NCBI GenBank assembly: GCA_964505635.1
Contig: CAZDIP010000005.1
Span: forward strand, 793 to 63,623
Source: an uncultured Candidatus Saccharibacteria bacterium
GTDB taxonomy: Bacteria; Patescibacteriota; Doudnabacteria; UBA920
Length of the DNA: 62,831 bases
Reading direction: 5' to 3'
Position numbers and translations under genes: made by a program. A model generated the notes under the pieces. The model saw only the letters and a program-made list of their open reading frames with translations. It was not told the origin of the DNA and made no database searches. Positions 7,848-43,730 of this stretch are shown here, piece after piece. Position 1 is the stretch's first letter. Each line of letters begins with the position of its first letter.

Positions 7848-9218
7848 ATGACAACAACAAATTTTAATTCATTAGGCATAGCTCCTAAACTTTTGGAAAT
7901 AATGGACAGGCTGGATTTTAAGGTACCTACGCCAATCCAACATCAATCCATTCCAATTGCCATAGAAGGCAAAGACATAGTGGGTATTGCCCAAACCGGC
8001 ACAGGCAAGACCCTGGCTTTCGGCATACCTATGATTCAAATTCTGGCAACAAAAAAAGGCAAAGGCCTTGTAATACTGCCGACGCGCGAGTTAGCGCTCC
8101 AGGTAAATGAGTTATTAAAAAAGATAGGGAAGTCTTTAGGCCTCAAAACCGCAATTTTAATAGGCGGAGAAAGCATTAGCAGGCAAGTCCGCCAGTTAAG
8201 GAACAATCCGCATATTATTATCGCTACACCCGGCAGGCTTATTGACCATTTGGACCAAAAAACAGTGCGCTTGGAAGGTATTACAATTTTAGTATTAGAT
8301 GAGGCTGACAGGATGCTGGATATGGGCTTTGCCCCCCAGATTAAAAAAATCCTCCAAATAGTGCCTAAAGAAAGGCAGACCATGCTTTTTTCCGCAACGA
8401 TGCCGGGGGATATAATGCAGATTGCGGAAAGCTATATGCGAATTCCGGTGCGTGTGGAAATTGCTCCCGCGGGGAGCACTCTTGACTCAACTACTCAAGA
8501 ACTTTTTTTCGTGCGCAAGGAAGACAAGCTCTCTTTGCTAAAAAATGTATTAAACCAATATAAAGGCAGCTGCCTTATTTTTACAAGGACAAAATTTGGC
8601 GCGAAAAAATTAGCAAATTCTATCCGCAATTTCGGCGTGGCTTCCGCGGAAATACATTCCAACCGCTCTTTAAACCAGCGGATTGAAGCTTTGGACGGAT
8701 TTAGAATAGGGAAATATAGGGCGCTTGTAGCAACCGATATTGCCGCGCGCGGCATAGACGTGGCTGGAATTGAACTTGTGGTAAACTATGACCTGCCGCA
8801 GCAACCGGAAGATTACGTGCATAGAATCGGAAGGACGGGCAGGGCAAAGCGTGAAGGGCATGCCATTACTTTTGCAACCTTTGAACAAAAATTTGATATC
8901 AGGTTAATTGAGAGGCTTATTAGAAAAACTTTACCTGTTTCCAAACTGCCGGGCTCTTTAAAAATACCGCAGCCGGTGGAACCTATGTCTTCTTTCGGCG
9001 GGTTTAGGGCTGCTAACCGTGAACCCATGGAAAGTTTCGGGCACGGGAAGTTCCGTCCTGTTAAAAGGCCAAGGCCGTTTCGCAGTTCGCATGCCAAAAG
9101 GCATCAAGGACAAAGTAGGAAGCCATACGTCAGTTTGCATGAAGGCAGTAGCGAGCACGGACATTTTATGAGAAGAAAAAAGCCGTTTGGTAGGCACAGG
9201 ACAAACAAATTTAGGTAA
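7848..9218 (+). CDS. DEAD-box ATP-dependent RNA helicase with basic C-terminal tail
   Basis: AQTGTGKT (motif I), DEAD, SAT and HRIGRTGR motifs. The C-terminal roughly 90 aa are Arg/Lys/His-rich. Confidence 0.93.
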   Translation: MTTTNFNSLGIAPKLLEIMDRLDFKVPTPIQHQSIPIAIEGKDIVGIAQTGTGKTLAFGIPMIQILATKKGKGLVILPTRELALQVNELLKKIGKSLGLKTAILIGGESISRQVRQLRNNPHIIIATPGRLIDHLDQKTVRLEGITILVLDEADRMLDMGFAPQIKKILQIVPKERQTMLFSATMPGDIMQIAESYMRIPVRVEIAPAGSTLDSTTQELFFVRKEDKLSLLKNVLNQYKGSCLIFTRTKFGAKKLANSIRNFGVASAEIHSNRSLNQRIEALDGFRIGKYRALVATDIAARGIDVAGIELVVNYDLPQQPEDYVHRIGRTGRAKREGHAITFATFEQKFDIRLIERLIRKTLPVSKLPGSLKIPQPVEPMSSFGGFRAANREPMESFGHGKFRPVKRPRPFRSSHAKRHQGQSRKPYVSLHEGSSEHGHFMRRKKPFGRHRTNKFR

Positions 9219-9256
9219 CAAAAACCCCGCTCTTTTAAAAGAGCGGGGTTTTTGTT
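9217..9256. terminator. bidirectional intrinsic terminator (helicase / cold-shock gene)
   Basis: AACAAAAACCCCGCTC-ttttaaaa-GAGCGGGGTTTTTGTT. Confidence 0.85.
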
Positions 9257-9261
9257 ACCGT

Positions 9262-9459
9262 TTAGGCGCGCTGTACGTTGACAGCGTTAGGACCTTTGGG
9301 GGATTCTTCCACATCAAAGCTTACAGTGTCGCCTTCGTTAAGTTCTTCGAAGGTAACGCCGACTAAAGATTTGCTGTGAAAAAATAAGTCTTTTTCCTGG
9401 CCGGCTACGGTTATAAAACCAAAGCCTTTGTCAGTCTTTTTCTTGATTACACCGTTCAT
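9262..9459 (-). CDS. cold-shock protein (CspA family, S1-like OB fold)
   Basis: KGFGFITVAGQEKDLFFHSKSL contains the RNP1-like KGFGFI motif. 65 aa. Confidence 0.92.
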   Translation of the reverse strand: MNGVIKKKTDKGFGFITVAGQEKDLFFHSKSLVGVTFEELNEGDTVSFDVEESPKGPNAVNVQRA

Positions 9460-9665
9460 TGGATTGTATAAAGTTAAAAAAATTAAATTGCAAATTAAGT
9501 ATGTTTGGGAAATTCGACCAAGTTTCTATACATAAGTGTTTGCTGTGTAATCATGCCATAAATTACCAATTGTGTCAAAGGGTGTTTTTTTAAATAAACC
9601 AAATATTTTTTTGTTTGACTGACTATACTGATGGTGGACAAGCGGAGAACTGGTTGAACTCTTTT

Positions 9666-10016
9666 CTAGAGTATATGCGGAAATTTGCCCCTAGAGCTAG
9701 GATTTATATTTGACTTTTCCTCAATAAATATAATTTCCAAATCCTTTTTTTCTTCTCCCAACTTGGCGGAGTTATTAACTCTCCAACTTTCAAGGCCAGG
9801 GCGAAGACGATTTAATTCAGAAATAAACCAATCGAAGTTTTTTTGGACAAAGATAATGTATTCTTTATAGGCAGGATGATTTTTGTCAATGAATATTTTT
9901 TTACCAACTTTTTTTATAAAAGGTGTCTCTTTTGGGAAAAAATCTAACATGCACATTGATTTACCATTACGTTGAGTCATAAAAGCCTGTGGAAAAGTCA
10001 TTTGTACAAATTTCAC
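9666..10016 (-). CDS. hypothetical protein
   Basis: 116-aa AT-rich ORF with no recognisable motif. Confidence 0.4.
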   Translation of the reverse strand: MKFVQMTFPQAFMTQRNGKSMCMLDFFPKETPFIKKVGKKIFIDKNHPAYKEYIIFVQKNFDWFISELNRLRPGLESWRVNNSAKLGEEKKDLEIIFIEEKSNINPSSRGKFPHIL

Positions 10017-10229
10017 TATAGTATAGTATAATAAAGTTATCTAATTATGCACAGCTTTAGGCTGTCTCTCATAAAACAAAAATTCAATGCAAGAGCTAAA
10101 CCCCCTCTTATTTAAAGTTAATTTTTTATTGACAAAAATCTTAATTTACCCTAAAATGGTAAGTCCCTGTCACAGGGGTTAAGCTTTATAGTCTTTTAAT
10201 AATATATCGCCCTGACATGAGGTAGTCTT

Positions 10230-10324
10230 TGGAGGAGGGTGGGAGATTTGAACTCCCGAAACCTGCGGTAACAGGTTTACTAGTTTTGGAGACTAGCGCT
10301 ATCGACCAGCTCAGCCAACCCTCC
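10230..10324 (-). tRNA. class II tRNA (22-nt variable arm) with apparent anticodon CCA
   Basis: Manual cloverleaf: GGAGGGT TG GCTG AGCTGGTCGA TAGC G CTAGT CTCCAAA ACTAG T-AAACCTG-TTACCG-CAGGTTT-C GGGAG TTCAAAT CTCCC ACCCTCC T CCA. The CCA end is encoded. G18G19 and the T-loop are present. Discriminator is U. Confidence 0.8.
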
Positions 10325-10469
10325 TGAAAGTCTACCTCACGTCTAGGCAATATAAAAACTGCTTAGAAAAATTTGTTTTCAAAAAGCGATGGTCTAACTT
10401 TTTAACGACAATTATTGGTTCGACCTATTTGCTTAACGGATACCAGACGTTTACTACAACGTCTGGTAT

Positions 10470-10598
10470 TTACTTTTGTCTAGGAACTCGAATGTGTTCA
10501 ACTTCAGTAGTCTTGGGCCGACGTTTGGCCTCTTCTATCTTTATAAACCTACCGTTACCAGAATCTCTTCCAACTTTTACGGTATAAGTTTTACTCAT
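10470..10598 (-). CDS. candidate small basic protein (42 aa)
   Basis: Not in the track. AAGGAG lies 11 nt upstream of the ATG. Translation: MSKTYTVKVGRDSGNGRFIKIEEAKRRPKTTEVEHIRVPRQK. A hairpin at 10441-10469 follows the stop. Confidence 0.5.
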   Translation of the reverse strand: MSKTYTVKVGRDSGNGRFIKIEEAKRRPKTTEVEHIRVPRQK

Positions 10599-11104
10599 TG
10601 TTACAACTTCTCCTTACGCTAGACCATCGCTTTATAAAAAACAAAAATCTACCCTAGTGACCAGCCCGCTTAAACTACATTTCTGTAGCTCTCGACGGTG
10701 TTTTTGCCAACACCCGCCAAAATCCCAAATTTTTGTGCGAGCGTGGTCACTACGATAGACTTTAAGTGTAGAAAGAATTTGGGAAAACTTCTAAACTTAC
10801 AACGTCCCTGGCAAAAGGGCTAAATTGTTCTTTACCGATAATATATTATACCCACATCCGAAACCTGTCAAATATAAAATTAGAGTTTGTATACTTTTTT
10901 ATTATAACATACCTTTTTTTAAAAAAATACTACTTATCCCCATATAGAAATCGAAGCCAAACAAAAACCCCCATCTAATAAGATGCGGGATGCTTATAAG
11001 TATGATGCTTGATATGAAAATGCCAAGTGTTTAACTAGTAGTTAAACACCAAATTATCCTATAACTAAAAGGCTTTTAGGAAAAAAGTATAAAAAAACCG
11101 CATC

Positions 11105-11504
11105 TGGTGGAGATGGGGGGAGTTAAACCCCCGTCCAGAACTTATTCATTTCCAAATTGTTCACAAGCTTAGTTTGCTTTATTTGCTTTGATGAATATAA
11201 GCGAACAAAACATCATCAAAGTTGATTTACTGTGCCTTAGCTTTAAAAGGTAAATCAGCCTTTAAAGAGCAGTCCAAAATTAGCATAAGGATCCTTAACT
11301 AGGACGAATTAAGGCTTATGTGTTGCTACTTAAATTAAGCGGCAACAGGAGCAAAAGCAAGATCAGCAGCTTTGAAGGCTGCGACTACTTTGTTCCAAGA
11401 ATTTTCAACAGCATTTGTTGATGTCCATAGGATTTACGAGACTATAGACTGGCTCGGCTTGCGTATTTAGAAATGTCAAAGACCTGTCAAAAACCGTCAT
11501 CCCC
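11105..11504 (-). ncRNA. ssrA: tmRNA (SsrA)
   Basis: 5' GGGGATGACGG... pairs with 3' ...CATCTCCACCA and includes the G3:U70 pair. T-arm is GGGGGTTTAACTCCCCC. The internal tag frame GCA GCC TTC AAA GCT GCT GAT CTT GCT TTT GCT CCT GTT GCC GCT TAA gives AAFKAADLAFAPVAA* (about 11335-11382). smpB is present at 18229-18657. Confidence 0.9.
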
Positions 11505-11513
11505 AAGGCCAAC

Positions 11514-11542
11514 ATTATATCAAATTTAGTTACTGTTGACAA
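11514..11542 (-). promoter_or_regulatory. ssrA promoter
   Basis: On the minus strand: TTGTCA, 17 nt, TATAAT, then 9 nt before the GGGG 5' end of the tmRNA. Confidence 0.65.
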
Positions 11543-11564
11543 TACTACAGAAATGTGGTATTTT
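11536..11564 (+). promoter_or_regulatory. promoter of the 96-aa gene, divergent from ssrA
   Basis: TTGACA (11536-11541), 17 nt, TATTTT (11559-11564). Its -35 overlaps the ssrA -35 on the other strand. Confidence 0.55.
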
Positions 11565-11661
11565 TATATGTTTGAGTTAGAAATTATTAGGGAGGAAAAA
11601 CTATAGAATAAAAAAAGCATCTGCCCACCATTATGCCTAGGCTCGAGTTGTAAGGAGATTT

Positions 11662-11952
11662 ATGAAGAACTTGGTGGGCAAGGAAGTTTTTTGGCTGGGG
11701 AATGTGTTCATTGTGACCATCGACCAGCAACGCAGTGGGCTCGTGGAAAGTCTGGAACACGAGCTTGATTTCTGCGGGGTACATTCCGGACCAGCGGCTA
11801 TGTACGGCAATGTGACAAAGATGGATGCTAAGGGAAACCTTACCGTTCGCTTTTTGTCTGCTGCCGGCAGCGAGCAGGGCGAGAGCTGTGATCCCAAGTA
11901 CAACTTCTATATACCGAAAGGTATGTACGTGGTTGTTTCGTGGGGGAAGTAG
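11662..11952 (+). CDS. hypothetical protein (96 aa)
   Basis: AAGGAG lies 5 nt before the ATG, with its own promoter and a terminator at 12001-12030. No family recognised. Overlapping alternative-frame ORFs in the track are judged spurious. Confidence 0.6.
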   Translation: MKNLVGKEVFWLGNVFIVTIDQQRSGLVESLEHELDFCGVHSGPAAMYGNVTKMDAKGNLTVRFLSAAGSEQGESCDPKYNFYIPKGMYVVVSWGK

Positions 11953-12000
11953 TTCTTTTCCAGCAAAGGTTGGTAATTACCTCCGAAATTACTGGGTTTG

Positions 12001-12030
12001 CCAGTTGTCCTAAACAACTGGTTTTGTTTT
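12001..12030 (+). terminator. intrinsic terminator
   Basis: CCAGTTGT-cctaa-ACAACTGG followed by TTTTGTTTT. Confidence 0.8.
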
Positions 12031-12097
12031 ACAGAAATTGGATATTACGCCTTAAGATGCGTTTTTATTTTGGCAAGATAAATGTTATTATTTTCTT

Positions 12098-12727
12098 ATG
12101 AACTATTTACCTGAATTTTTAGCAATCGCGTCGCTTCATCTTTTGGCGGTTATGAGTCCGGGCCCGGATTTTGTTTTAATCAGCAAGAATAGCCTGGTAT
12201 ATTCCAGAAAAAGCGCAATTTATACGGCTTTGGGTTTGGCTTTTGGCATCGCGGTGCACGTAACTTATTCACTTATTGGCATTGCGTACATAATTTCCAA
12301 GTCCATAGTAATCTTTTCTGCAATTAAATTTTTAGGCGCGGGATATTTAATTTACATTGGCCTAAAGTCCCTAGGCGCAACGCCAACCGAGAATATTGGC
12401 AGCGACATAGCAGCAGAAGCAAAAATACACAGTTGGTCTGCAATAAAAACCGGCTTTTTAACCAATGTCTTAAACCCTAAGGCGACGCTGTTTTTTTTAG
12501 CCGTGTTTACTCAGGTTATAGATAAAAATACGCCGGTGTTTGTGAAAGTCTTATATGGCTTGGAAATGTCTACCATGACTTTTATCTGGTTTTCGTTTGT
12601 GGCAGCAGTGCTTTCCCACAGTAAAATAAAAGAAAAATTTACTAAAATTCAACACCACGTGGAAAGAGGAATGGGTGCGGTTTTAATTGCTTTAGGGATC
12701 AAGGTTGCTTTATTAAAAGATAAATAA
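12098..12727 (+). CDS. LysE/RhtB family amino-acid exporter
   Basis: N-terminal LLAVMSPGPDFVLISKNSL motif. 209 aa with 5-6 TM helices. Confidence 0.85.
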   Translation: MNYLPEFLAIASLHLLAVMSPGPDFVLISKNSLVYSRKSAIYTALGLAFGIAVHVTYSLIGIAYIISKSIVIFSAIKFLGAGYLIYIGLKSLGATPTENIGSDIAAEAKIHSWSAIKTGFLTNVLNPKATLFFLAVFTQVIDKNTPVFVKVLYGLEMSTMTFIWFSFVAAVLSHSKIKEKFTKIQHHVERGMGAVLIALGIKVALLKDK

Positions 12728-12734
12728 TACATTT

Positions 12735-13283
12735 ATGCATTATGTGGAAATAAAAGAGTCAGGGTTGGCAAAATATTTGTTTTCTTCCAGCAACTTTGCC
12801 TGGTTTTGGCTAATTGCCCGCGTTTACGTGGGCTATGAATGGCTCATGGCAGGCTGGGGCAAGTTAGGCCAGGCGGCTTGGACAGGGGACAAAGCCGGCG
12901 CGGCTGTCAGCGGTTTTTTGCAGGGCGCGCTTAACAAAACTTCCGGCGCCCACCCCGACGTTTCAGGCTGGTACGGCTGGCTTATAGAAAACGTAGCATT
13001 GCCTAATACTTCCTTTGTATCGCATTTGGTAGTCTATGGCGAAATTTTAGTCGGCGTAGCGTTAATTTTGGGAGCCTTTACCGGCATTGCGGCGTTTTTT
13101 GGCAGCTTTATGAATTTAAATTATTTATTTGCCGGCACGGTCAGCGTAAATCCTTTATTGTTGCTTATCCAGTTGTTTTTAATTTTAGCCTGGAAAAACG
13201 CGGGCTGGTATGGTTTGGACAGGTTGCTTTTGTTTTTGCTTGGCGCGCCGTGGGACAAAGGCCGAATTTTTAAAAAGGATTAA
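12735..13283 (+). CDS. DoxX family membrane protein
   Basis: RVYVGYEWLMAGWGKL, VVYGEILVGVALILG and GWYGLD segments are typical of DoxX/DoxD-like proteins. Confidence 0.65.
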   Translation: MHYVEIKESGLAKYLFSSSNFAWFWLIARVYVGYEWLMAGWGKLGQAAWTGDKAGAAVSGFLQGALNKTSGAHPDVSGWYGWLIENVALPNTSFVSHLVVYGEILVGVALILGAFTGIAAFFGSFMNLNYLFAGTVSVNPLLLLIQLFLILAWKNAGWYGLDRLLLFLLGAPWDKGRIFKKD

Positions 13284-13289
13284 AATTAA

Positions 13290-13312
13290 ACCCCGCTAAA
13301 GCGGGTCTTTTG
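13290..13312 (+). terminator. intrinsic terminator
   Basis: CCCGC-taaa-GCGGG followed by TCTTTTG. Confidence 0.7.
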
Positions 13313-13326
13313 TTATAATATAGTTA

Positions 13327-14021
13327 ACTGACCGGCCGGCACAACAAGATGCCGGCTATGGGAGAATTTTGAAAAAGAAAGGAAAAGGAGGCCTATATGG
13401 CGGCCCTTTGGCAAGGCCGAGAATTCCCGTCGCTGTTGCCCGGCTTTAGGCCGGGTGAGGCGGCAAGTTTAGGGATAAGCCGTACCGGAGCTTGGCTCCG
13501 GGGGTTCCTTTAGCGGGAGATCCCGAGTAGTAATTTGGAAGTACGTTGTGCCTATGATGGTGTCGGCGCTGTGCACCTATGGCGCTACGCTTTGGATGAA
13601 GCAACAAGAGATTTCAGTGTGGTGCGACGTCTTGCTTAAGTGGCTGTCTGAAAATGGCAGCTTTTATGCAAGCGTCATGCTGTGTTCGGGCTTCATACCC
13701 AAAGCGCAACGTACTGTTGAGGAAGGTTCGGAATCACTGCTTCAGCTGGTGATAGTTGAATGTGTAGACACAACCCTTCGTTGCGGGTTGTTTTATGCAT
13801 CTTCACTCTTTCCGGAATGGGAAGAGGAAATCACTGCTTGGGGCAGTCTGGGTCTTGACCTGGTGTTTTTGGCTCTGGTGGAAAAGAGCCATTGCCTGGT
13901 TGAGATTTCCCGTACCATCGTAAGGAGCTTAAGGCCGGCCAGGCCTTTGTCTTTGGGTCTGGCTTAACACCCCCATGGAATAAAAAGAGGCGGGAACAAC
14001 GCTGTACGCGTTCCCGCCTCA
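13327..14021 (+). ncRNA. candidate large structured RNA (about 700 nt), class unknown
   Basis: GC-enriched block in AT-rich surroundings. An extended -10 (TGtTATAAT) sits at 13311-13319. There are at least 8 strong local hairpins, and the block ends in a 10-bp hairpin at 13987-14020. The only long ORF (13548-13967) is Cys/Trp-rich and atypical for this genome. Confidence 0.45.
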
Positions 14022-14135
14022 AAACCCCCTTATATCAAGAATAAAAAATTTTATAGCCTTTAATTAAGCCAAGCAAACACTTTTTATTGAAGCATTGTAC
14101 TTGTTAAAATGTTATAATGTTATTAACGCATACGC

Positions 14136-15593
14136 ATGCGTTTTATTATTGTAATTTATTTCATGCCAGGAAAAAAATTCGAAAAAGAATCGGCTATCCG
14201 CAAGCATTATAAAATCGGAATTGAATTGGAAATGTTTACTTTAGATAAGAAAGGTTATGTTTCCAATAACGGAGAAAAGTTCATTAAAAAATTGGAAGTC
14301 TCCAACCCTGAGCTGGGTATTAAAAAAGAGTGCGGTAGCAATATGCTGGAGTTAGAGAGCCTGCCGGAAATTTATGTGCCTGACTTAATGGAAGAGGTGG
14401 TGGGCAAGCTGGAAAAACTTTTAGTTTTAACTGAAAAAGAAAATTTGTTTATTTATCCTTTCGGGACTTACCCCGGCGCTTTCACGCCTAAAATCAGTCA
14501 GGGCCGGCGCTATATATTGCAGCAAAAACTTTTTGGCAAGCAAAAATTTATGATTGCCGCCCGCTGCTGCGGGTTGCATTGCCATTATTCCTTGCCCTGG
14601 GGCATGTTTGACGGAGAGGAAAAAGACATAAAAAATTTAGTTAAGTCCAAAAATAAGGAAAGCTTGCTTAATATATATAACCTGTTTATTGCCATGGACC
14701 CGGCGCTTACAACCTTTACCCAATCTTCGCCTTTTTACCAGGGAAAATTTTTAGGCAAAGATTCCCGGGTCGTTGTTTACCGGGGCGGACAAGTTTTTAA
14801 TTACCCGCAAGGGCTTTATGCTGACTACGAAAAGTTTGGTGGTTTGCAGGGATATGTAAATACCAATACCGATTTGCAGCATGTAATTCAAGATAGGTAT
14901 GTAAATTGGGACAGTCTGCTGGAAAAATTCAGCGCAAAGGCGCAGGAGCTTTTAAAGCACGGTTCCCGTCTGGATACCACTTGGAATCCGGTAAAAATTA
15001 ACGCACACGGTACAACCGAGCAGCGAGGCATGGACGCCAATTACCCGAGCGTAATTGTAGCCGTATGCCTGCTTATAAAATATATTTCCCTGCAGGTACA
15101 AGAACAGTTTATTAAGGTTGCAGCTTCGGACGAGGCCGTAAAACAGCCTTTCAAATATGAAAACGGAAGCATTTTAATCCCGCCGGACAGCCATGTAATA
15201 AATTATTTGCAGCCGAAAGCCGCTCTTGAAGGTTTGGCTAACGAAGATGTTTATAATTATTGTGCGGCTTTATTTCGCCTGGGAAAAATTTTTGTCCCCG
15301 AAGACAGGCTGGAATTATTACAACCTTTAAAAAATATGCTTGACGAGAAGAAAACGGTTTCCGATAAAATTTTGTCGAAAGCCAAATCTTTGGGAGTAAA
15401 ATTAGAAGAGGGGATTTCAGAATCCAAAGCCGCGGAATTGGCTTTGTATTTTTCCGAACAGCTCAGGGAAGATGTTTTTAAAACAAAGCAGGCTTTGGAA
15501 AAATTTCACAGTTCAACAAATGTAATTTCTTTGTCGGCAGCATTAATTTCAGCCAACATTGTCACCGCGGCATGTTCCGCCGCGTTTATATAA
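14136..15593 (+). CDS. glutamate-cysteine ligase family 2 (GCS2) / carboxylate-amine ligase-like protein
   Basis: IGIELEMFTLD and CGLHCHYSLP motifs resemble YbdK/GCS2 enzymes. The more likely start is the ATG at 14163 (MPGKKFEKES). Confidence 0.65.
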   Translation: MRFIIVIYFMPGKKFEKESAIRKHYKIGIELEMFTLDKKGYVSNNGEKFIKKLEVSNPELGIKKECGSNMLELESLPEIYVPDLMEEVVGKLEKLLVLTEKENLFIYPFGTYPGAFTPKISQGRRYILQQKLFGKQKFMIAARCCGLHCHYSLPWGMFDGEEKDIKNLVKSKNKESLLNIYNLFIAMDPALTTFTQSSPFYQGKFLGKDSRVVVYRGGQVFNYPQGLYADYEKFGGLQGYVNTNTDLQHVIQDRYVNWDSLLEKFSAKAQELLKHGSRLDTTWNPVKINAHGTTEQRGMDANYPSVIVAVCLLIKYISLQVQEQFIKVAASDEAVKQPFKYENGSILIPPDSHVINYLQPKAALEGLANEDVYNYCAALFRLGKIFVPEDRLELLQPLKNMLDEKKTVSDKILSKAKSLGVKLEEGISESKAAELALYFSEQLREDVFKTKQALEKFHSSTNVISLSAALISANIVTAACSAAFI

Positions 15594-15597
15594 AAAT

Positions 15598-16227
15598 TTA
15601 TTTTAACAAGGATCTCAAATTTTTAATTTTGTTTTCCGTAATCTCCCATTCGTAAATGTCGGTATTGGCTATGTCTTTATCCGTGTCGTAAGCCCTAAAA
15701 ATTCTCGGGATTTCCGGGAAGTGGAACAATAAAAGCCTTATAACCCCGTTGTGGGTAACTATGCCTATATTTTTATGGTCGTAGTTAACTACAATATCTA
15801 AAATCGCGCTAATGGTTCTTTGTCTGACGTCGTCTACGTTTTCTCCGCCAAACGGGCGATAGTTGTAAGATTGCATAGCCTCATTTTCTCGATTATCCGG
15901 CAAAAGTTTGTCCCATTCTTCCTGGGTTTTGCCGGTTAAGCTGCCAAAATCCCTTTCCCTGAGCCTAAAGTCGTGCAAAATTGGCACCGGTTCTTCCAGT
16001 GCCTGGTCTAAAATGGCCGCGCTTTCTTCCGCCCTGCGCAAATAGGATGTAAAAATTACGTCTAAGTCCAGACGTTTTATAATTGGGATTAAATTTTGCA
16101 TCTGCAGCACGCCTTTAGTGTCTAAGTAATCGTCTATCTGCACGCCTTGGCGGATGCGTTTTTTGTTGCTCGTGGTTTCGCCGTGTCGGATAAAGTAGAG
16201 GACAGTGGAATTTCTAATTTTTAGCAT
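15598..16227 (-). CDS. histidine phosphatase (phosphoglycerate mutase-like) family protein
   Basis: LYFIRHGETTSNKK (RHG catalytic motif) and a downstream VTHNGVIR (H). Confidence 0.85.
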   Translation of the reverse strand: MLKIRNSTVLYFIRHGETTSNKKRIRQGVQIDDYLDTKGVLQMQNLIPIIKRLDLDVIFTSYLRRAEESAAILDQALEEPVPILHDFRLRERDFGSLTGKTQEEWDKLLPDNRENEAMQSYNYRPFGGENVDDVRQRTISAILDIVVNYDHKNIGIVTHNGVIRLLLFHFPEIPRIFRAYDTDKDIANTDIYEWEITENKIKNLRSLLK

Positions 16228-16276
16228 AACAAAAAATCGTAAAATTACGTTTTGGAATAACTAAGCTTTTACAAAC

Positions 16277-16651
16277 TTACTTTTTTTTCTTTACAGCCTG
16301 CTTTTTGGGTGTTTTAGCCTTGGTTGCTTCTTTGATTTTGGCGGCAATGCCGGTATAGTAGCCTTTAAGTTCCTTCCCAAGTTTTTCCAAATCCTGCTTG
16401 TCTACGGATTTTATTTTTTTATATTCGGTTATAACCTGGGAAACCGCCTTGTCGTACATGGGCCTAGATACTGTTTTTAGCCGCTTTACCTCTTTTAGCA
16501 CATCGGTTTTAGCCTGTTTAACCCATTTGCTTGCCTGAGCCTGATGTTTTTTGCCGTCTTTGCCAAAAAAATAGTAAGCTCCGGCTGCTGCAGCGGCTAG
16601 TGCCATTATGCCTGCTGCTCCTGCTTTGGCTGCGCTGTGACTTTTTGCCAT
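16277..16651 (-). CDS. hypothetical protein, YtxH-like (N-terminal anchor plus Lys-rich helices)
   Basis: The anchor AGIMALAAAAAGAYYFF is followed by charged helical sequence. Confidence 0.5.
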   Translation of the reverse strand: MAKSHSAAKAGAAGIMALAAAAAGAYYFFGKDGKKHQAQASKWVKQAKTDVLKEVKRLKTVSRPMYDKAVSQVITEYKKIKSVDKQDLEKLGKELKGYYTGIAAKIKEATKAKTPKKQAVKKKK

Positions 16652-16684
16652 ATATTTTTACTCCGAGGCGAAAAAATCCGCCAG

Positions 16685-16945
16685 TTATTTTTTATGCCTT
16701 TTGTAGACCGAGTTGAAAAAACTCGCTAAATGTTTTAATTTCATTCCGGCCCGTACGTTTTCTCGCAAATCGGATAAATCTTCAGACAATAAATCGCTTT
16801 CTTTTTTTGCCTTTTGAGAAATATAATTAATTGCTCTGGTAATGCGGACAACATAATAACCCACAATTAACATAACCAAAGTAACAACCACCACTAAAAC
16901 GCTGGTTAGAAAAAAGAAAATATCCTGTTTAATAAAATCACTCAT
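16685..16945 (-). CDS. hypothetical small membrane protein
   Basis: 86 aa with one TM helix (IFFFLTSVLVVVVTLVMLIVGYYVV). Confidence 0.5.
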   Translation of the reverse strand: MSDFIKQDIFFFLTSVLVVVVTLVMLIVGYYVVRITRAINYISQKAKKESDLLSEDLSDLRENVRAGMKLKHLASFFNSVYKRHKK

Positions 16946-16996
16946 AGTTTAAGTACAATAGAGTTGTTTAGATTATATTAATTGCGGCATTGTTTG

Positions 16997-17503
16997 TTAT
17001 TTATAGTAACTTTTAACTTCGTAAAGGACATAAAGCGACAAAAGCGTGCCGATTATTAAACTGCCAAAGTCCATGGCGATTAAGCTGCCAACAGCCGAAA
17101 CTAAAATTGAGTATAAAATTAGCCGCCAGCCCCCAATTTGCCTCTTAAAGAGTCCTGGCAATGCCATGGCTTCTAAAATCAGGGCAAAAAGGCTAATGGC
17201 GCCGGTTATAAAATACATTCCTCCGGAATGCACTCTGCCGTACATCATGGCCACGGGCGTAAAAACAGCTGTCAGCCCCAAAGCTATTAACATTGCCGGA
17301 ATGGCAATAACCATGAGAATTAAGGTTATCCAAGGACCGAATTTAACAATAAATTCTTTTAAGCCCGTTGGCAGATGAAAGGTTATCTTAGCGTAAACTT
17401 TGCCGATTTCTTCCTCAATTTGCATGAGAAAACCATGATGGCCGCCTGGATTCGTTCCCGGGTTTGGAGCTTGTTGATTATTGGCCCCATTAAAATTATC
17501 CAT
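16997..17503 (-). CDS. hypothetical polytopic membrane protein
   Basis: 168 aa with 3-4 TM helices and a Gly/Pro/Asn-rich N-terminus. Confidence 0.55.
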   Translation of the reverse strand: MDNFNGANNQQAPNPGTNPGGHHGFLMQIEEEIGKVYAKITFHLPTGLKEFIVKFGPWITLILMVIAIPAMLIALGLTAVFTPVAMMYGRVHSGGMYFITGAISLFALILEAMALPGLFKRQIGGWRLILYSILVSAVGSLIAMDFGSLIIGTLLSLYVLYEVKSYYK

Positions 17504-17573
17504 ATTAAATTATAGTATTAATAATATAATTAATTATAGCACGGTTTATTCAAACAAGCATTTTTTAAAGCAC

Positions 17574-18113
17574 TTATTTTCCGTATCGGTCAAACAAGTC
17601 TTTTAAGATATTCTGGTATTTTTTTCTTATGTTTTCGTCCCGTCCAACCTCTAAAACCTCATCATTTAGGTTGGTGGCCGAAGAGGTCCAGTTAAATGAA
17701 CCGGAGGCGTAAGCTTTTTCCGTTACCACTGTTTTTAGGTGCATTATGGCGGAGTGATCTTGCTCGTAAACGGTAATGCCTTCTTTTTTAAGTTCGGTGA
17801 TAATTTTGTTTTGGCTTTCTAAGGAGCCGGTTTGGTTTCTGTCGGTTATGCCTTTTACTTCCAGTCCCCGGTACTTGGCTGCGAGCAGCGCGTCTTTTAT
17901 GTCGGTGCGGGTAAAAGTATAAATAGCGAAGTAAACAAAACGGTCGGCATCGCGAATTAGGTTTATAATTTCCAAATTAAGCTGCTGGTTCCGGTTGTAG
18001 TAAACCTCTACTTGGTGCGCGGGCTGATATTGGTAAGAAAAGTAGAATTGGGCGGAGAGTGCGACGAGCAAGACAATTATGGTAAGATGGATTTTTTCTT
18101 TTGTTACCTTCAT
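17574..18113 (-). CDS. phospholipase D-like (single HKD, Nuc-type) domain protein with signal anchor
   Basis: MHLKTVVTEKAYASGSFNWTSSATNLNDE is an HxK...GSxN type motif. Confidence 0.75.
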   Translation of the reverse strand: MKVTKEKIHLTIIVLLVALSAQFYFSYQYQPAHQVEVYYNRNQQLNLEIINLIRDADRFVYFAIYTFTRTDIKDALLAAKYRGLEVKGITDRNQTGSLESQNKIITELKKEGITVYEQDHSAIMHLKTVVTEKAYASGSFNWTSSATNLNDEVLEVGRDENIRKKYQNILKDLFDRYGK

Positions 18114-18228
18114 AAAAAAATAATGCTGTTTATTTAAATTCCAAATTCGAAAAATACAAAAAATTTAAATTTAAATACTTGAATTTTAAATTTGTTTCGA
18201 ATTTCGTGCTTCGAGTTTTGGTTTTTAT

Positions 18229-18657
18229 TTAGAAATCCCTTATTTCCTTCCTCGCTTCTCTTTTTTTAATATACTCTCTCTTATCTACTTTCTTTCTCGC
18301 TTTGCCCAGGCCGATTTTTATTTTTAGCCAACCCTTTGGGGTACAAAAAATTTCTAAGGGAATTAGGACTAAGCCTTTTTCTTTTCCTAGTAACTGTTGG
18401 ATTTCTTGCTGTTTTAGCAATAGCTGCCTGCTTTGGGTTGGGTTACATTTTTCACTTGGCGAGTATTTATAAGGGCCAATATGGCAATTTATTAAGTTTA
18501 CTCCAGAAGGCGAGGTAGTTACATAAGAGCCGGTTAAAGACACATTGCCGTTTTTGACGCTTTTCACTTCCGCTCCGGACAATACCAAACCAGCCACGAA
18601 AGCCTCTTTAATTTCGTAGTCAAAACGAGCGCGTTTATTTTCTGTTAGAATTTTCAT
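18229..18657 (-). CDS. smpB: SsrA-binding protein SmpB
   Basis: NKRARFDYEIKEAFVAGLVLSGAEVKS and a basic C-terminal tail. Confidence 0.93.
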   Translation of the reverse strand: MKILTENKRARFDYEIKEAFVAGLVLSGAEVKSVKNGNVSLTGSYVTTSPSGVNLINCHIGPYKYSPSEKCNPTQSRQLLLKQQEIQQLLGKEKGLVLIPLEIFCTPKGWLKIKIGLGKARKKVDKREYIKKREARKEIRDF

Positions 18658-18701
18658 ATTGGAATTTATTTAATTTTATCATAATGGCGTGTTATAATAT
18701 A

Positions 18702-18735
18702 GTAACCTTAAATCTCGGTCACGATTTAAGGTTAC
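18702..18735. promoter_or_regulatory. 34-nt palindrome (candidate operator) immediately after a TATAAT box
   Basis: GTAACCTTAAATC-tcggtcac-GATTTAAGGTTAC. TATAAT is at 18693-18698. An identical copy lies at 19302-19335. Confidence 0.6.
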
Positions 18736-18761
18736 AAGTCGCCAATATTTTAGTTATTTTT

Positions 18762-19292
18762 ATGCCAAAAAAAGAATTAACATTTACAAGCCAGTTAATT
18801 TTAAGCCTGCATGCAGTAGAGGAAATGCTGTTGCCTTTTATTTCGCTTAGGGAGCTAAACAAGCGTATTCGTTACGGCGGGGATTATGATAGCGCTAGAG
18901 TAGTTTTATATAAACTTAAGAGACGAGGTCTAATTAAGTATATACAATATAAAAAAGATAAATTTATTCAGTTAACCGAAAAAGGAGAATTAGAGGCTTT
19001 GATGCTTAAAACTAGATTGCCCAACAAACAGGAAGTCTGGGACGGCAAATGGAGAGTTATTTTGTTTGATATCCCCGAAGAGGCTAATTTAAAAAGGGAT
19101 CAATTTCGAAAAATGTTAAAGTCCACTGGTTTTTACATGTTTCAAAAAAGCGTATTTATTAGCCCGTATGCTTTGAATCGGGATGCTGTAGATTATCTGA
19201 ACAAGAGCCAGCTAATTAAATACATCAGAATTCTAAAGGTAGAAGATATAGATAACGATAAAGATCTAAAGACACTTTTTGGATTAAAATAA
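18762..19292 (+). CDS. PaaX-like / Cas2-fold putative transcriptional regulator
   Basis: WDGKWRVILFDIPEEANLKRDQFRKMLKSTGFYMFQKSVFISPY block. The start is taken at MPKKELTF because the track start (18684) would run through the promoter palindrome. Confidence 0.65.
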   Translation: MPKKELTFTSQLILSLHAVEEMLLPFISLRELNKRIRYGGDYDSARVVLYKLKRRGLIKYIQYKKDKFIQLTEKGELEALMLKTRLPNKQEVWDGKWRVILFDIPEEANLKRDQFRKMLKSTGFYMFQKSVFISPYALNRDAVDYLNKSQLIKYIRILKVEDIDNDKDLKTLFGLK

Positions 19293-33898: not shown

Positions 33899-34624
33899 AT
33901 GACAAATCAATCAGCTAATTCCAATCTATCTTTTAACCATTTTGCTTTAATTGCGGGAGTAGCGGTAACTTTGCTAGGGTTTTCCTGGATGAAGAACCCT
34001 GAAATTTTTTCCAGACTTTTTTCCAAAGCCGCACCCTCCAAAATAGAAGATCAGGCAAGAGTTGCTTACTACCCTTATGTGGCAAAAGAAAATTCTGAGC
34101 CTACAGTGGCGGGAGCCAGCACGCAGGCGGCTGGGCCGAGTATTTTAAATGAAGATGGGAGTTTAAGCCCGGTGTTTGATTTTGGCAGCGTGTTGGGCGT
34201 CAATACAGAACAGATTTCAGCCGATGCCGAGAGCATTAAAGTGATTACGGTGGCTGACAGTCCGGCAGGGATTGAGGATTTTATAAAGTCCTCGCAAAAG
34301 GTTGAGTCTGAGCTTATTAATGTCGTCAGTTTTGAGCAAGCTCTTTCTTCGCAGGATCAGCAGCAAATCAACCATGAGGCCGACAAGCTTTCGCAAGTTT
34401 TGGTGAGTTTAAAAACAACGCCGGTACCCGCTTCTTTTGCCAGGCTGCAAAAATTAAAAATACTTCAGTATCAGGTGGCCATACAGATGCTAAAGAATTA
34501 TACCAGCGTAGATAATAATCCCGAGCAGGCCTTAAATGATTTAGGTGTATTTATGGAAAGCCAAAAAATGATGGGGGATGAATTGGTAAGGTTAAACCAA
34601 CAATACAATTTAGAAGCCCGATAA
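33899..34624 (+). CDS. hypothetical membrane-anchored protein
   Basis: 241 aa with a TM helix (FALIAGVAVTLLGF). Tightly packed with the next gene. Confidence 0.55.
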   Translation: MTNQSANSNLSFNHFALIAGVAVTLLGFSWMKNPEIFSRLFSKAAPSKIEDQARVAYYPYVAKENSEPTVAGASTQAAGPSILNEDGSLSPVFDFGSVLGVNTEQISADAESIKVITVADSPAGIEDFIKSSQKVESELINVVSFEQALSSQDQQQINHEADKLSQVLVSLKTTPVPASFARLQKLKILQYQVAIQMLKNYTSVDNNPEQALNDLGVFMESQKMMGDELVRLNQQYNLEAR

Positions 34625-34625
34625 T

Positions 34626-36635
34626 ATGGCCATAAAAATAGGAAGCAAAAAATTTATTTTGGATATAACGGCTAAAATCTTGTTAACCGTTGTAATTTTG
34701 GGTGCACTGCCTCAGACTGTTTTAGCTTTAGCTTTGGATTCTGTGCCTATTGACCACCCGGGTTTAGGACAGGGGGGAGTAGCGGGAGATGCTGCGGCCG
34801 TGGCAGCCAACAGCGCTCTTGGCGTGGCTGAAATACACATAAATACCTGCGACAATCAGGAGTTGGTAAACCAGGGTTTTGACAGTGGTATTAACGCTGC
34901 TTTGCCCGGACTGTCTTTAATTACCGGCGGAGCCGATGAGGCCGCTTATTTGCAAAACAAGATTACAACCTTAGACACGCAATTGGCTTGCAGGGAAATT
35001 GACAAAGTTGCTTTGGAAAAAATTCCTTCCGTCAATTTGCTCGTACAGCAAAAAAAGCAGCAGCTTTTGGATAAAACCGTCGCCTCAATAAAAACTTTGC
35101 AAGCAAGAAAAGACCAGTTAATGGCTCAGCAGCGTGTAGCCAAAGCTGGTTTTTGGAAAGGGGTTTTCGTTAAATTAATGGTTAACCTGTCCAAGTCCAT
35201 GGCTACCAGGCTGGTCAATATGATCATAAATAACTATAAAGTTAACGACTTTGCCCGTTATGCCAGCGTTTTAGGCGCGCAGGTTTATACTACCGATTAC
35301 ATTATGCAAAATGCGGATGTCAGTCGTGACCAGCTCATGATCCGCTCTATGCTTACCAACCCGTTGCTACGCGAAAAAATTCCCAACGCGGCTTTCCAGC
35401 GCGCCTCAGACTCCATGGCCGTAAACAATATTCCGTTTAAAGCTGAAGAAATTAATTACGACGACCCGAAATTCTTTTTAAAATTAAACAAAACTTTTGC
35501 GGCTGACGCCCAGCCGGCAATGGTTAGCGCGGTTTTAAGCGGTAAAGCCAATAGCATTGAGCAAAGCGCCAATACCGCAGCTAAAACGGAAATTAACGCC
35601 AGTAACGGCATAAAATCGCCGCATACCTGCAGCGATGTAGTATCACAGCAAAATTCAATTGACAGGGAGTGGAAGGCGGTAAACGATAAAGTAGCTGACA
35701 GGCAGGCTTTGGTAGATAGTCTGGAAAATGAGTTAAATTTGCTTAAAAATTTTACTGCTTCCAATAAACAAAAAATTTCCCAAGATTTGGCGAAAGCCAG
35801 GACTGATTTAAAACAAGCCCATGCTGAATTGTCGGCTTTGGATGGCAAGTATGACAATAAGGCCGTGGTTAAATTTTGTGACTCGGTAAGCACACCGGGC
35901 AATTTGGTTAATCAGGGCGTAGATAAACTTGTTAATTCGGTGATTAGTAAAGCATCTGACTTTAGCGATAATAATTTATCCAGCGTGCAAAGCACACTCA
36001 CAAATTTAGCTACCACTGTTTTTGAAAATTTGCTTTTCGGCAGAACAGCGCGCTCCAGTATTGTTAATGAATTAACCAATTCAGCTTCTGCGGTCACTGG
36101 GATTGTGGTCAGTGGTTTGAGTGAAGCTTCGGTAAAAAGAAAATTGGATCAAAAGCAGGCGAATATGGAAAAGGGCGTTGATTTTGACTGGGACTTTGGC
36201 AGTAGTGCCTCAGAGTATATTTTAACCTGGTCGGTTGACCAGGCAAAAATAAAAAATGCATCCTATGCGACTATTGCCGGAACCGGGGTTAGTCCTACGC
36301 AACGTTTAAATCTTAGCGGAAGCTTAACCGTTAATTCTTCTTTGCCCGGGAACTATTTTTTGAGAGTGTTCGCGGCAAATAATACTACTGCATTGGTGAC
36401 AGTTTCGGTTACCACAGAAAGTTCTTCTGTGGGTGGTTCTTCAAACACAACTCCAAATGGAACAGGTAATGCCGCGTGCGGAGGTAATTATTCAAGTTTG
36501 CAGGTTTGTGTTCAACAAACCGGAGATCAAAATTATTGTGCTTCTATTTGCTCGCAGGTTCAGGGAGCTTTTACTCAGGCGACTGTAAACATAAGAGGAC
36601 CTAGTGGAATTACACCAAGAGGTCCAGCCAACTGA
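34626..36635 (+). CDS. hypothetical large secreted or anchored protein (669 aa)
   Basis: N-terminal anchor (ILLTVVILGALPQTVLALA), coiled-coil-like middle, beta-rich Ser/Thr/Asn tail and a Cys-rich C-terminus. A terminator follows. Confidence 0.65.
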   Translation: MAIKIGSKKFILDITAKILLTVVILGALPQTVLALALDSVPIDHPGLGQGGVAGDAAAVAANSALGVAEIHINTCDNQELVNQGFDSGINAALPGLSLITGGADEAAYLQNKITTLDTQLACREIDKVALEKIPSVNLLVQQKKQQLLDKTVASIKTLQARKDQLMAQQRVAKAGFWKGVFVKLMVNLSKSMATRLVNMIINNYKVNDFARYASVLGAQVYTTDYIMQNADVSRDQLMIRSMLTNPLLREKIPNAAFQRASDSMAVNNIPFKAEEINYDDPKFFLKLNKTFAADAQPAMVSAVLSGKANSIEQSANTAAKTEINASNGIKSPHTCSDVVSQQNSIDREWKAVNDKVADRQALVDSLENELNLLKNFTASNKQKISQDLAKARTDLKQAHAELSALDGKYDNKAVVKFCDSVSTPGNLVNQGVDKLVNSVISKASDFSDNNLSSVQSTLTNLATTVFENLLFGRTARSSIVNELTNSASAVTGIVVSGLSEASVKRKLDQKQANMEKGVDFDWDFGSSASEYILTWSVDQAKIKNASYATIAGTGVSPTQRLNLSGSLTVNSSLPGNYFLRVFAANNTTALVTVSVTTESSSVGGSSNTTPNGTGNAACGGNYSSLQVCVQQTGDQNYCASICSQVQGAFTQATVNIRGPSGITPRGPAN

Positions 36636-36637
36636 TT

Positions 36638-36664
36638 TAAAAACCCCCTTTTAGGGGGTTTTTA
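36638..36664 (+). terminator. intrinsic terminator splitting the block into two units
   Basis: AAAAACCCCC-tttta-GGGGGTTTTT. Confidence 0.8.
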
Positions 36665-36781: not shown

Positions 36782-36790
36782 TGGTATAAT
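36782..36790 (+). promoter_or_regulatory. extended -10 promoter element for the second unit
   Basis: TGgTATAAT. Confidence 0.55.
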
Positions 36791-43727: not shown

Positions 43728-43730
43728 CAA

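Follow-up and report, generated by a model that had tools for sequence, protein, structure and literature searches.

An intact class II tRNA gene with a Trp anticodon

Which amino acid is carried by a bacterial tRNA whose body looks like that of a tRNA-Ser and whose anticodon is that for Trp? The question is raised by a gene at positions 10230–10324 of a stretch of 62,831 nucleotides (hereafter the window) from contig CAZDIP010000005.1 of assembly GCA_964505635.1, an uncultured bacterium. An earlier note on this DNA had read the gene as a class II tRNA, with a long variable arm and an anticodon loop reading CCA, and two programs agree with it. ARAGORN, which reports five RNA genes in the window, calls a class II tRNA-Trp(cca) of 95 nt on the minus strand. 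The Rfam model RF00005 matches 10233–10324 (minus strand) over its full length (model positions 1–71) with 55.1 bits and E = 3.9e-9 for the whole window, well above the gathering threshold of 29 bits; its covariance-model fold gives the same anticodon and places a 21-nt insertion at the variable region. The minimum free energy (MFE) structure is a cloverleaf with a variable-arm hairpin (−37.7 kcal/mol, z = −3.58), and none of 200 shuffled sequences folded as well.

The architecture described before, from acceptor stem to encoded CCA end, is borne out by the fold and the Rfam alignment. The acceptor stem has 7 bp, the D stem has 4 bp with a G13·U22 pair and carries a 10-nt loop bearing G18 G19, the anticodon arm has a 5-bp stem and the 7-nt loop CUCCAAA with U33 and A37, and a 22-nt variable region is followed by a canonical T arm with a 5-bp stem and by a U discriminator. 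Pairing is perfect in the acceptor, anticodon, T and variable stems, and the invariant and tertiary nucleotides are kept (U8, A14, G18 G19, A21, U33, G53 U54 U55 C56, A58, C61 and G15-C48). The variable stem had been given as 7 bp; it is present, and has 8 bp once the terminal U·G pair is counted. The idea that the anticodon loop might open to 9 nt, as in a frameshift suppressor, did not hold up: U31 and A39 form a Watson-Crick pair, the 5-bp stem is perfect, and there is therefore no reason to open it. The locus is thus a real, structurally intact class II tRNA gene with anticodon CCA.

The body profiles as tRNA-Ser

To compare bodies independently of anticodons, anticodon-masked profiles were built from the Ser (77), Leu (55) and Tyr (28) class II tRNAs of all fetched loci (numbered L below); in two-fold cross-validation they were right for 145 of 160 tRNAs. 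The window tRNA scored 52.7 bits with the Ser profile, 10.2 with Leu and 14.2 with Tyr, which puts numbers on the likeness to Ser tRNAs that had been remarked on earlier. Half-models blind to the window tRNA still gave it 36.5–37.5 bits, compared with a median of 40.1 (interquartile range 28–51) for held-out genuine Ser tRNAs. When Ser profiles were set against profiles of the Trp-type class II tRNAs of phages described below, the margins for the window tRNA favoured Ser, at +15.9 and +8.6 bits, the median margins being +20.9 for genuine Ser and −15.8 for phage Trp-type tRNAs (145 of 152 correct in cross-validation).

Individual identity elements point the same way. Bacterial Ser determinants are C72, G2-C71, R4-Y69, C11-G24, a large variable region, G30-C40 and G73, the last being 'moderate' in E. 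coli (PMC9976931, Table 1). The window tRNA has G1-C72, G2-C71, G4-C69, C11-G24, the long variable arm and G30-C40, and only G73 is replaced, by U73. The bacterial Trp set comprises the anticodon C34 C35 A36, G73, A1-U72, A9 and the acceptor pairs G2-C71, G3-C70, G4-C69 and G5-C68 (PMC9976931). The anticodon is there, while U73, G1-C72 and G9 are found instead of G73, A1-U72 and A9. Three of the four acceptor pairs are also present (position 3-70 is A3-U70), and these G-C pairs are generic and fit Ser as well. Beyond the anticodon and these generic pairs, we recognize no bacterial TrpRS determinant in the tRNA. A73, which LeuRS and TyrRS need (PMC9976931), is likewise missing. The anticodon lies outside the Ser sets NGA and GCU, a feature that SerRS does not need.

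The window contains two resident Ser tRNAs, with anticodons UGA (55492–55580, loop CUUGAAA) and GCU (57947–58038), and no Ser(CGA). The variable-arm base of the tRNA(CCA), U44-AAA...UUU-C48, is the same as in the resident tRNA-Ser(GCU). The gene is no near-copy of either resident, both of which have G73 and a different D arm. Taken together, profiles and identity elements assign the body of the window tRNA to the tRNA-Ser type.

The single departure from the Ser set, U73, occurs naturally in this family. Among the unique Ser-anticodon class II tRNAs in our pool (n = 77), 59 have G73, 12 have U73, 5 have C73 and one has A73, making U73 the second commonest discriminator of genuine Ser tRNAs; the Leu and Tyr tRNAs in the pool nearly always have A73. 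Examples with U73 are a Ser(CGA) within a 32-tRNA phage array and the Ser(AGA) of a Collinsella aerofaciens isolate, whose acceptor stem GGAGGGU/ACCCUCC is common to the window tRNA. Mukai et al. give the SerRS signature as a long variable arm plus 'G73 or U73', and Ser insertion at non-Ser codons was shown in E. coli (PMC5389517). The pool and this signature together mark U73 as a natural Ser-type discriminator, and it is essentially never seen in phage Trp-type class II tRNAs.

UGG is a Trp codon in the host, and the tRNA is a candidate mistranslator

All 24 Trp residues of the window IleRS are encoded by TGG, and each of the 22 columns that are at least 80% Trp in 119 IleRS homologues is TGG in the window. 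TGG makes up 0.89% of codons. In the 42 open reading frames (ORFs) of at least 150 aa, the stops are TAA (35), TAG (5) and TGA (2), so TGA serves as a stop, and long housekeeping ORFs run without interruption. UGG means Trp in this host, which uses the standard code, and the tRNA(CCA) has therefore not reassigned the codon. Both a reassigned UGG and a sense role for UGA are ruled out by these counts.

SerRS selects its tRNAs by tertiary shape, by acceptor-stem pairs and by the long variable arm. Since the enzyme is blind to the anticodon, the window tRNA would be expected to be serylated. On the ribosome it would pair with UGG, and with UGG meaning Trp such a tRNA would be a Trp-to-Ser missense (mistranslating) tRNA rather than an agent of codon reassignment. 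We therefore propose, tentatively and as the best of the explanations considered here, that the gene encodes a hybrid-identity Ser-tRNA(CCA), with a 7/5 Ser body and a Trp anticodon, which is predicted to be serylated and to act as a dampened Trp-to-Ser mistranslator at UGG. Ser charging, and with it a non-Trp residue at UGG, had already been suggested in the earlier note; it stands as the leading hypothesis, and the Ser-type body supports it.

A long precursor helix encloses the gene

The suggested dampening would come from the flanks of the gene. Short complementary motifs had been reported on either side of it; they exist, although they start at 10218 and 10329, one base below the positions given, and the complementarity is far longer and stronger than claimed. 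An inverted-repeat search returned 28-nt arms that are 82% complementary (Table 1), and the leader/trailer duplex has an energy of −35.0 kcal/mol, compared with −10.1 ± 2.6 for shuffled trailers (z = −9.5, none of 300 as strong). In the fold of the precursor (MFE −75.3 kcal/mol), the cloverleaf stays intact at the tip of a 27-bp helix composed of an A(−1)-U73 pair and, beyond an internal loop with C74 C75, segments of 4 + 12 + 10 bp; counting the acceptor stem, the quasi-continuous helix is about 34 bp long. No comparable flanking helix is seen at the other three window tRNAs (−4.6 to −7.0 kcal/mol), and flanking duplexes across 1,346 tRNAs in the fetched loci average −9.7 kcal/mol (sd 4.9).

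In the modeled precursor, the helix may be an rRNA-style processing stem that has to be cut before end maturation, and it may also throttle output. It is long enough for RNase III, and its removal would be needed before RNase P and 3' trimming could free the mature ends. With the tRNA locked at the tip of a 27-bp helix in the primary transcript, output would probably be low or conditional.

Among the same 1,346 tRNAs, the next strongest helices around class II CCA tRNAs are those of L029 (−32.4 kcal/mol), L040 from Nomurabacteria (−28.5) and L048 from Saccharibacteria (−26.7), where Leu-bodied A73 tRNA(CCA) genes lie inside helices of 18–26 bp. For LeuRS, too, the anticodon is not a determinant. 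These Leu-bodied genes have G1-C72 (L029 180–264, L040 3051–3137, L048 3093–3178), and similar ones are found in L037, L065 and L074. The L029 and L040 helices show at least one compensatory change, and the gene neighbourhoods of L029, L040 and L048 are unrelated; no neighbourhood common to helix-enclosed CCA tRNAs was found when L040, L048 and the window were compared. The phage Trp-type class II tRNA(CCA) genes have no flanking helix of this kind. A closely related pair of 98-nt Ser-bodied tRNA(CCA) genes was also seen, in a Terriglobales metagenome-assembled genome (L043 2845–2942) and in L081 (5603–5700), one with U73 and an encoded CCA end and the other with G73; the L043 leader/trailer helix is about 12 bp long, at roughly −17 to −20 kcal/mol depending on flank length.

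Class II tRNA(CCA) genes in bacteria and phages

The shape of the tRNA would have been unprecedented for a Trp tRNA according to the earlier note. A survey shows otherwise. The search pattern (CCA anticodon arm GTCTCCAAAAC, 22–36 nt, GTTCRAATC) excludes class I tRNA-Trp and is restrictive. It matched 83 places in 185,579 species genomes, about 45 of which are ARAGORN class II tRNA(CCA) genes of 83–98 nt from many phyla, and in the viral contigs of IMG/VR such a tRNA was found at no fewer than 112 loci, out of 120 listed. The bacterial genes fall into three groups. The first has Trp bodies with an extended variable arm, A1-U72 and G73, and is found in Collinsella and relatives and in one Saccharibacteria array of 21 tRNAs. 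The second is Ser-bodied with G1-C72 and G73 or, rarely, U73 (L043 from Terriglobales, L030 from Dehalococcoidia), and the third is Leu-bodied with A73 (L029, L037, L040, L048, L065 and L074). In L011, L046, L053, L064 (the Collinsella aerofaciens isolate) and L067, the Trp-bodied tRNA(CCA) has a variable arm of about 15 nt and adjoins a tRNA-Ser(GCU) and the unusual U73 tRNA-Ser(AGA) whose acceptor stem is that of the window tRNA. Near-identical copies are present on viral contigs L174, L180, L182, L202, L211 and L217.

The phage genes lie mostly inside tRNA arrays (L107–L226; for example L107 5286–5377, L115 and L149). By profile, their bodies are mostly Ser-like (65) or Tyr-like (18). G73 was parsed in 108 of the 112, the four U73 calls looking like a one-base registration offset in parsing, and among the 112 listed the 1-72 pair is A-U in 63 and G·U in 31. 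Of the 24 phage arrays with at least 15 tRNAs, 20 have no Trp tRNA other than the class II tRNA(CCA), and these 20 include three arrays with tRNAs for all 20 amino acids. It thus seems that, in phages, tRNAs of Ser or Tyr shape with a Trp-type acceptor end serve as tRNA-Trp. Scans of the viral contigs returned no tRNA(CCA) combining U73 with a CCA end and no Leu-like tRNA(CCA) family. In the literature we found no description of a class II tRNA-Trp, of a Ser-bodied tRNA(CCA) or of phage use of class II tRNA(CCA). Twelve tRNAs with the amber-suppressor anticodon CUA were also noted in the phage tRNA loci L107–L226.

These genes bear directly on the strongest competing explanation, remolding to tRNA-Trp. 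The window gene would then encode a class II tRNA of Ser descent that TrpRS has taken over by way of the CCA anticodon, and which inserts Trp at UGG as an extra or the sole isoacceptor. The phage arrays make a class II shape seem compatible with Trp function, and the Collinsella-type tRNAs are Trp bodies with extended variable arms. Across all domains, C34, C35 and A36 rank among the major determinants for TrpRS (PMC9976931), and G1-C72 and G2-C71 fit archaeal-type Trp identity, an archaeal-type TrpRS being present in some CPR (candidate phyla radiation) bacteria (PMC5370408). UGG is strictly Trp in the window, a fact that a harmless Trp-inserting tRNA would account for most simply, and the gene is perfectly intact. 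However, the window tRNA has neither the bacterial G73 nor the archaeal A73, and it lacks A1-U72 and A9. The phage tRNAs that do seem to serve Trp have G73 and mostly replace G1-C72, U73 with a CCA end was not found among them, and with its anticodon masked the window tRNA groups with genuine Ser tRNAs rather than with them. As described next, the gene is also absent from the examined syntenic sites of relatives and has no Doudnabacteria counterpart in the species-genome scan. We consider remolding to tRNA-Trp unlikely, if worth keeping in view. Direct membership in the phage Trp-type class II group is ruled out by U73, G1-C72, the stand-alone gene, the empty viral scans and the Ser-side profile margin.

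The gene is an orphan in a CPR chromosome

The genes around the tRNA are chromosomal and encode transporters, a DEAD-box helicase, a cold-shock protein, transfer-messenger RNA (tmRNA), ArgRS, IleRS, RecO, UvrD, KsgA, RadA, RecG and ClpB. The best helicase and IleRS homologues are labelled Doudnabacteria or Patescibacteria, at identities no higher than 72–76%, and the host is therefore a Doudnabacteria-like CPR bacterium without close sequenced relatives. The closest IleRS relatives (L085–L091, 76% identity) have the block from DoxX to ArgRS-IleRS-RecO-UvrD in common with the window and contain no tRNA or tmRNA within 10 kb; in L085 and L086, which are syntenic over the block, this refers to the 10 kb upstream. 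Among the closest helicase relatives that have the helicase/cold-shock pair (L227, L228 and L231), no tRNA lies downstream of the pair; more distant helicase homologues are not syntenic with the window. The class II CCA pattern had no Doudnabacteria match in the 185,579 species genomes. A search for the body with any anticodon (TGAGCTGGTCGATN{43,59}GTTCRAATC) gave 15 matches in JGI (Joint Genome Institute) metagenomes, all of them chance matches in coding DNA, the exact pattern being insensitive to diverged orthologues; in viral contigs it found nothing.

The tRNA(CCA) gene is thus an orphan, absent from the examined syntenic sites of its closest relatives. The earlier note had allowed that it might be the conserved, sole tRNA-Trp of such relatives; given its absence there and the lack of a Doudnabacteria match, it is not the standard tRNA-Trp of the clade. 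The segment from the helicase/cold-shock pair to His_Phos (7848–19292) is rearranged relative to L227 and L085/L086. Its order in the window is csp, orphan ORF, tRNA, tmRNA, LysE, DoxX; in L227 the helicase directly follows His_Phos and a peptidase M23 gene, and in L085 GIY-YIG and unknown genes precede DoxX. A prophage or island inserted at the tmRNA 3' end is not supported, as there is no att-like repeat, no integrase and no phage family. In the direct-repeat test at that end the best local match was 21, compared with 17.8 ± 2.4 for shuffles (34 of 300 as good), the flanking ORFs hold no integrase or phage families, and GenBank phages show no similarity except in a 99-nt tRNA-like stretch.

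An orphan gene would also be expected if the tRNA were a recent or decaying allele of a tRNA-Ser(CGA), a dispensable isoacceptor in which G35 changed to C, and were silent, poorly matured or mildly deleterious and without selected function. A single substitution, G35 to C, separates the loop CUCCAAA from CUCGAAA, the loop of Ser(CGA), UCG would be readable by Ser-UGA, and Ser(CGA) is missing from the window. The gene lies in lineage-specific DNA, beside a 116-aa ORF without homologue, no tRNA with its body was matched in JGI metagenomes or viral contigs, and no clear promoter is seen immediately upstream. Ser- and Leu-bodied CCA tRNAs are also sporadic across unrelated phyla, as recurrent point mutation predicts. 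On the other hand, there is no sign of decay, with every stem perfect, no invariant position lost and an encoded CCA end. The body is far from both resident Ser tRNAs and has U73, so it is no fresh duplicate, and it is very unlikely that the assembly consensus is wrong at precisely position 35. The strong flanking helix, found also around the Leu-bodied CCA tRNAs of other CPR genomes, suggests a maintained unit. On balance we think a mutated or decaying Ser(CGA) allele improbable.

Weighing the mistranslator reading

Several points weigh against serylation and mistranslation as proposed here. CCA is the strongest TrpRS determinant, and charging may be due in part or chiefly to TrpRS. Replacing Trp by Ser at invariant positions ought to do harm, and a perfectly preserved gene is hard to square with this unless very little of the tRNA is made. 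The search for orthologues found none, and neither covariation nor conservation thus gives a sign of selection. A sigma-70 consensus scan gave no convincing promoter directly upstream of the gene. The enrichment of flanking helices in G1-C72 class II CCA genes is suggestive only (7 of 21, compared with 10%, at −19 kcal/mol or below; Mann-Whitney p = 0.07). Finally, the identity rules derive from E. coli, T. thermophilus and B. subtilis rather than from CPR enzymes, and the profiles are sequence-only hidden Markov models, not curated isotype models, trained on tRNAs from phage-heavy loci that were picked for class II CCA tRNAs.

A wider version of the mistranslator proposal can be imagined for CPR organisms, which are host-dependent for amino acids. 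Anticodon-blind class II tRNAs (Ser-bodied here, Leu-bodied in Nomurabacteria and Saccharibacteria) would repeatedly have been given CCA and long helices as a gated 'Trp-codon bypass'. When Trp-tRNA is scarce, RNase III-type release would yield Ser- or Leu-tRNA(CCA), and ribosomes would pass UGG at the cost of mistranslation, complementing the ribosome-rescue tmRNA encoded 780 nt upstream. This scheme is highly speculative, and we give it little credence.

A role outside translation is also very improbable. The RNA would then be a decoy, a sensor, a substrate (of a tRNA-targeting nuclease or an aminoacyl-transferase) or a Y-RNA-like module, and the long 5'/3' helix bearing a tRNA domain loosely recalls modular tRNA-like RNAs. 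In YrlA, the long stem replaces the anticodon stem. The window helix instead extends the acceptor stem, and a Y-RNA-like reading was rejected as the structural definition does not apply. The neighbouring tmRNA, cold-shock and DEAD-box helicase genes have RNA-stress functions, and Mukai et al. suggested that many allo-tRNAs (see below) act outside translation, tied to toxin-antitoxin or mobile elements (PMC5389517). However, with a complete anticodon arm including U33 and A37 and an encoded CCA end the tRNA is fully equipped to decode, no Rfam family but tRNA matches, and no toxin-antitoxin, Ro/Rsr, Fem-type or nuclease gene was found near it. Charging by CysRS through U73, C35 and A36, giving Cys at UGG, is scarcely credible: of the bacterial Cys determinants (U73, G2-C71, C3-G70 and G34 C35 A36, with U73 alone giving minihelices Cys identity; PMC9976931) the tRNA has U73, G2-C71, C35 and A36, but neither G34 nor C3-G70 nor a G15:G48 Levitt pair. 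In addition, tRNA-Cys belongs to class I, and U73 is more simply a common tRNA-Ser variant.

Gene neighbourhood

Features of the locus are collected in Table 1. The tmRNA lies 780 nt upstream of the tRNA(CCA) on the same strand, with a near-consensus promoter at 11542–11514 and a U-run directly after its 3' end, and Rfam reports no credible structured RNA in the 780-nt gap. The nearest sigma-70-like match to the tRNA(CCA) lies some 520 nt upstream, and transcription from it would take in the 42-aa ORF as well. No family matched that ORF, and the 116-aa ORF has no homologue among 5.8 billion proteins, so that the tRNA(CCA) sits in lineage-specific DNA.

Table 1. Features of the tRNA(CCA) locus, in window positions.
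Feature	Sequence or description	Positions	Strand	Evidence
tRNA(CCA) RNA, acceptor to anticodon stem	GGAGGGU-UG-GCUG-AGCUGGUCGA-UAGC-G-CUAGU-CUCCAAA-ACUAG	10230–10324	minus	sequence, Rfam alignment
tRNA(CCA) RNA, variable region to 3' end	[U AAACCUGU UACC GCAGGUUU C]-GGGAG-UUCAAAU-CUCCC-ACCCUCC-U-CCA		minus	sequence, Rfam alignment
Class II tRNA gene	Ser-type body, anticodon CCA, U73, encoded CCA end	10230–10324	minus	ARAGORN, Rfam, fold, Ser profile
Anticodon	CCA (plus strand: TGG) in loop C32 U33 C34 C35 A36 A37 A38	10287–10289	minus	sequence, Rfam alignment
Variable region	22 nt: U44, 8-bp stem AAACCUGU/GCAGGUUU, loop UACC, C48	10258–10279	minus	fold, alignment with window Ser tRNAs
Discriminator	U73	10233	minus	Rfam alignment, comparison with resident Ser tRNAs
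5' leader arm of precursor helix	RNA UAUAUUGCCUAGACGUGAGGUAGACUUU	10327–10354	minus	inverted repeat, duplex energy
3' trailer arm of precursor helix	pairs with leader	10203–10230	minus	inverted repeat, precursor fold
tmRNA	400 nt, tag peptide AAFKAADLAFAPVAA	11105–11504	minus	Rfam, 135.1 bits
Sigma-70-like promoter match (tentative)	TTGACA-17-TAATAT	10843–10871	minus	consensus scan only
42-aa ORF between tmRNA and tRNA(CCA)	MSKTYTVKVGRDSGNGRFIKIEEAKRRPKTTEVEHIRVPRQK	10470–10598	minus	no family match
116-aa orphan ORF just downstream of tRNA(CCA)		9666–10016	minus	no homologue among 5.8 billion proteins

A perfect palindrome of 23 + 23 nt (GGTAACAAAAACCCCGCTCTTTT / AAAAGAGCGGGGTTTTTGTTACC, 9214–9259) lies between the convergent DEAD-box helicase and cold-shock genes and looks like a bidirectional terminator; partial copies of its arm occur at 10094–10115 and 10960–10981. 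Elsewhere in the window, 33899–51199 encodes large proteins without Pfam match (669, 1430, 351, 348, 230, 1020, 188 and 390 aa) and, among them, a TraG/VirB4-like P-loop ATPase (44457–46304), which may belong to a CPR type IV secretion or pilus-like apparatus. A protein with a PaaX-middle/Cas2-like domain (18684–19292, plus strand) is encoded directly upstream of ArgRS, a pairing also present in L227.

Comparison with known systems

Natural tRNAs in which body and anticodon are mismatched are the raw material of genetic-code change and regulated mistranslation. To our knowledge, the confirmed bacterial cases are few: allo-tRNAs, the tRNA-ProX family and Sec/Cys hybrids. If our proposal is correct, the window gene adds a Ser-bodied tRNA of canonical shape that targets the only Trp codon, a CPR host with a reduced genome and a possible new throttle, the long precursor helix. 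Taken singly, it is a plausible mistranslator candidate without conservation, and the survey may outweigh it. Class II tRNA(CCA) genes are common in phage arrays and sporadic in bacteria, on Ser, Leu and Trp bodies, and annotation pipelines, going only by the anticodon, call all of them 'tRNA-Trp', a label that probably misnames some. The pattern of Ser- and Leu-bodied CCA tRNAs in CPR hairpins and common class II tRNA(CCA) in phages deserves a proper census.

The window tRNA belongs with these mismatched tRNAs and is unusual among them in having a Trp codon as its target and a long precursor helix. It is not a tRNA-Sec: the selC product has an 8/5 branch, a 6-bp D stem with a 4-nt loop, anticodon UCA and G73, as opposed to 7/5, a 4-bp D stem with a 10-nt loop, CCA and U73 here, and U8 is unable to pair as an eighth acceptor pair. 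With the phage class II tRNA(CCA) it shares a Ser-/Tyr-like D arm, the long variable arm and the anticodon context GUCU-CCA-AAAC. The phage tRNAs, however, have G73 and A1-U72 or G1·U72, fill the Trp slot of arrays and lack the flanking helix, whereas the window gene stands alone, has G1-C72 and U73 and falls on the Ser side of the profile contest.

Alloacceptor remolding likewise joins the body of one acceptor family to the anticodon of another through an anticodon point mutation, but it is documented mainly in mitochondria and eukaryotic nuclear genomes, usually with anticodon-reading synthetases and a switch of identity (PMC4783518; PMC3923123). Here the synthetase of the parent family, SerRS, is blind to the anticodon, so the identity of the window tRNA would be expected to stay Ser.

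The closest bacterial parallel is offered by allo-tRNAs, class II tRNAs with a long variable arm, G73 or U73 and non-Ser anticodons (for 35 codons) that are predicted, and in some cases were shown in E. coli, to be SerRS substrates (PMC5389517). They are rare and patchily distributed, their overexpression is toxic, and some of them may have no part in translation (PMC5389517). The window tRNA resembles them in its long variable arm, U73 and non-Ser anticodon. Allo-tRNAs have 8/4 or 9/3 acceptor/T stems, however, and the canonical 7-bp acceptor and 5-bp T stem of the window tRNA rule out membership. A CCA anticodon is also not mentioned in the text that describes them, where 'Trp' and 'UGG' occur 0 times (PMC5389517). 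Allo-tRNAs are found mainly in Acidobacteria, Clostridia and Proteobacteria, often near toxin-antitoxin genes, whereas the window tRNA is from a CPR bacterium, has no such neighbours and is enclosed in a long precursor helix.

Natural or engineered anticodon variants of tRNA-Ser, among them the tRNA-Ser(CAG) of yeasts of the CUG clade, present the same combination as the window tRNA, a Ser body with a foreign anticodon (PMC11415595; PMC6827378). In these tRNAs, SerRS ignores the anticodon, the outcome is ambiguous decoding or mistranslation, and its level needs to be modulated (PMC11415595; PMC6827378). Those systems are eukaryotic and the Candida codon is truly reassigned, whereas in the window all 22 conserved sites still have UGG for Trp, and Ser insertion, if it occurs, would thus amount to low-level mistranslation. 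Known Ser variants are dampened by G33 or by mutations in the acceptor or variable arm; in the window tRNA, the precursor helix is the putative counterpart.

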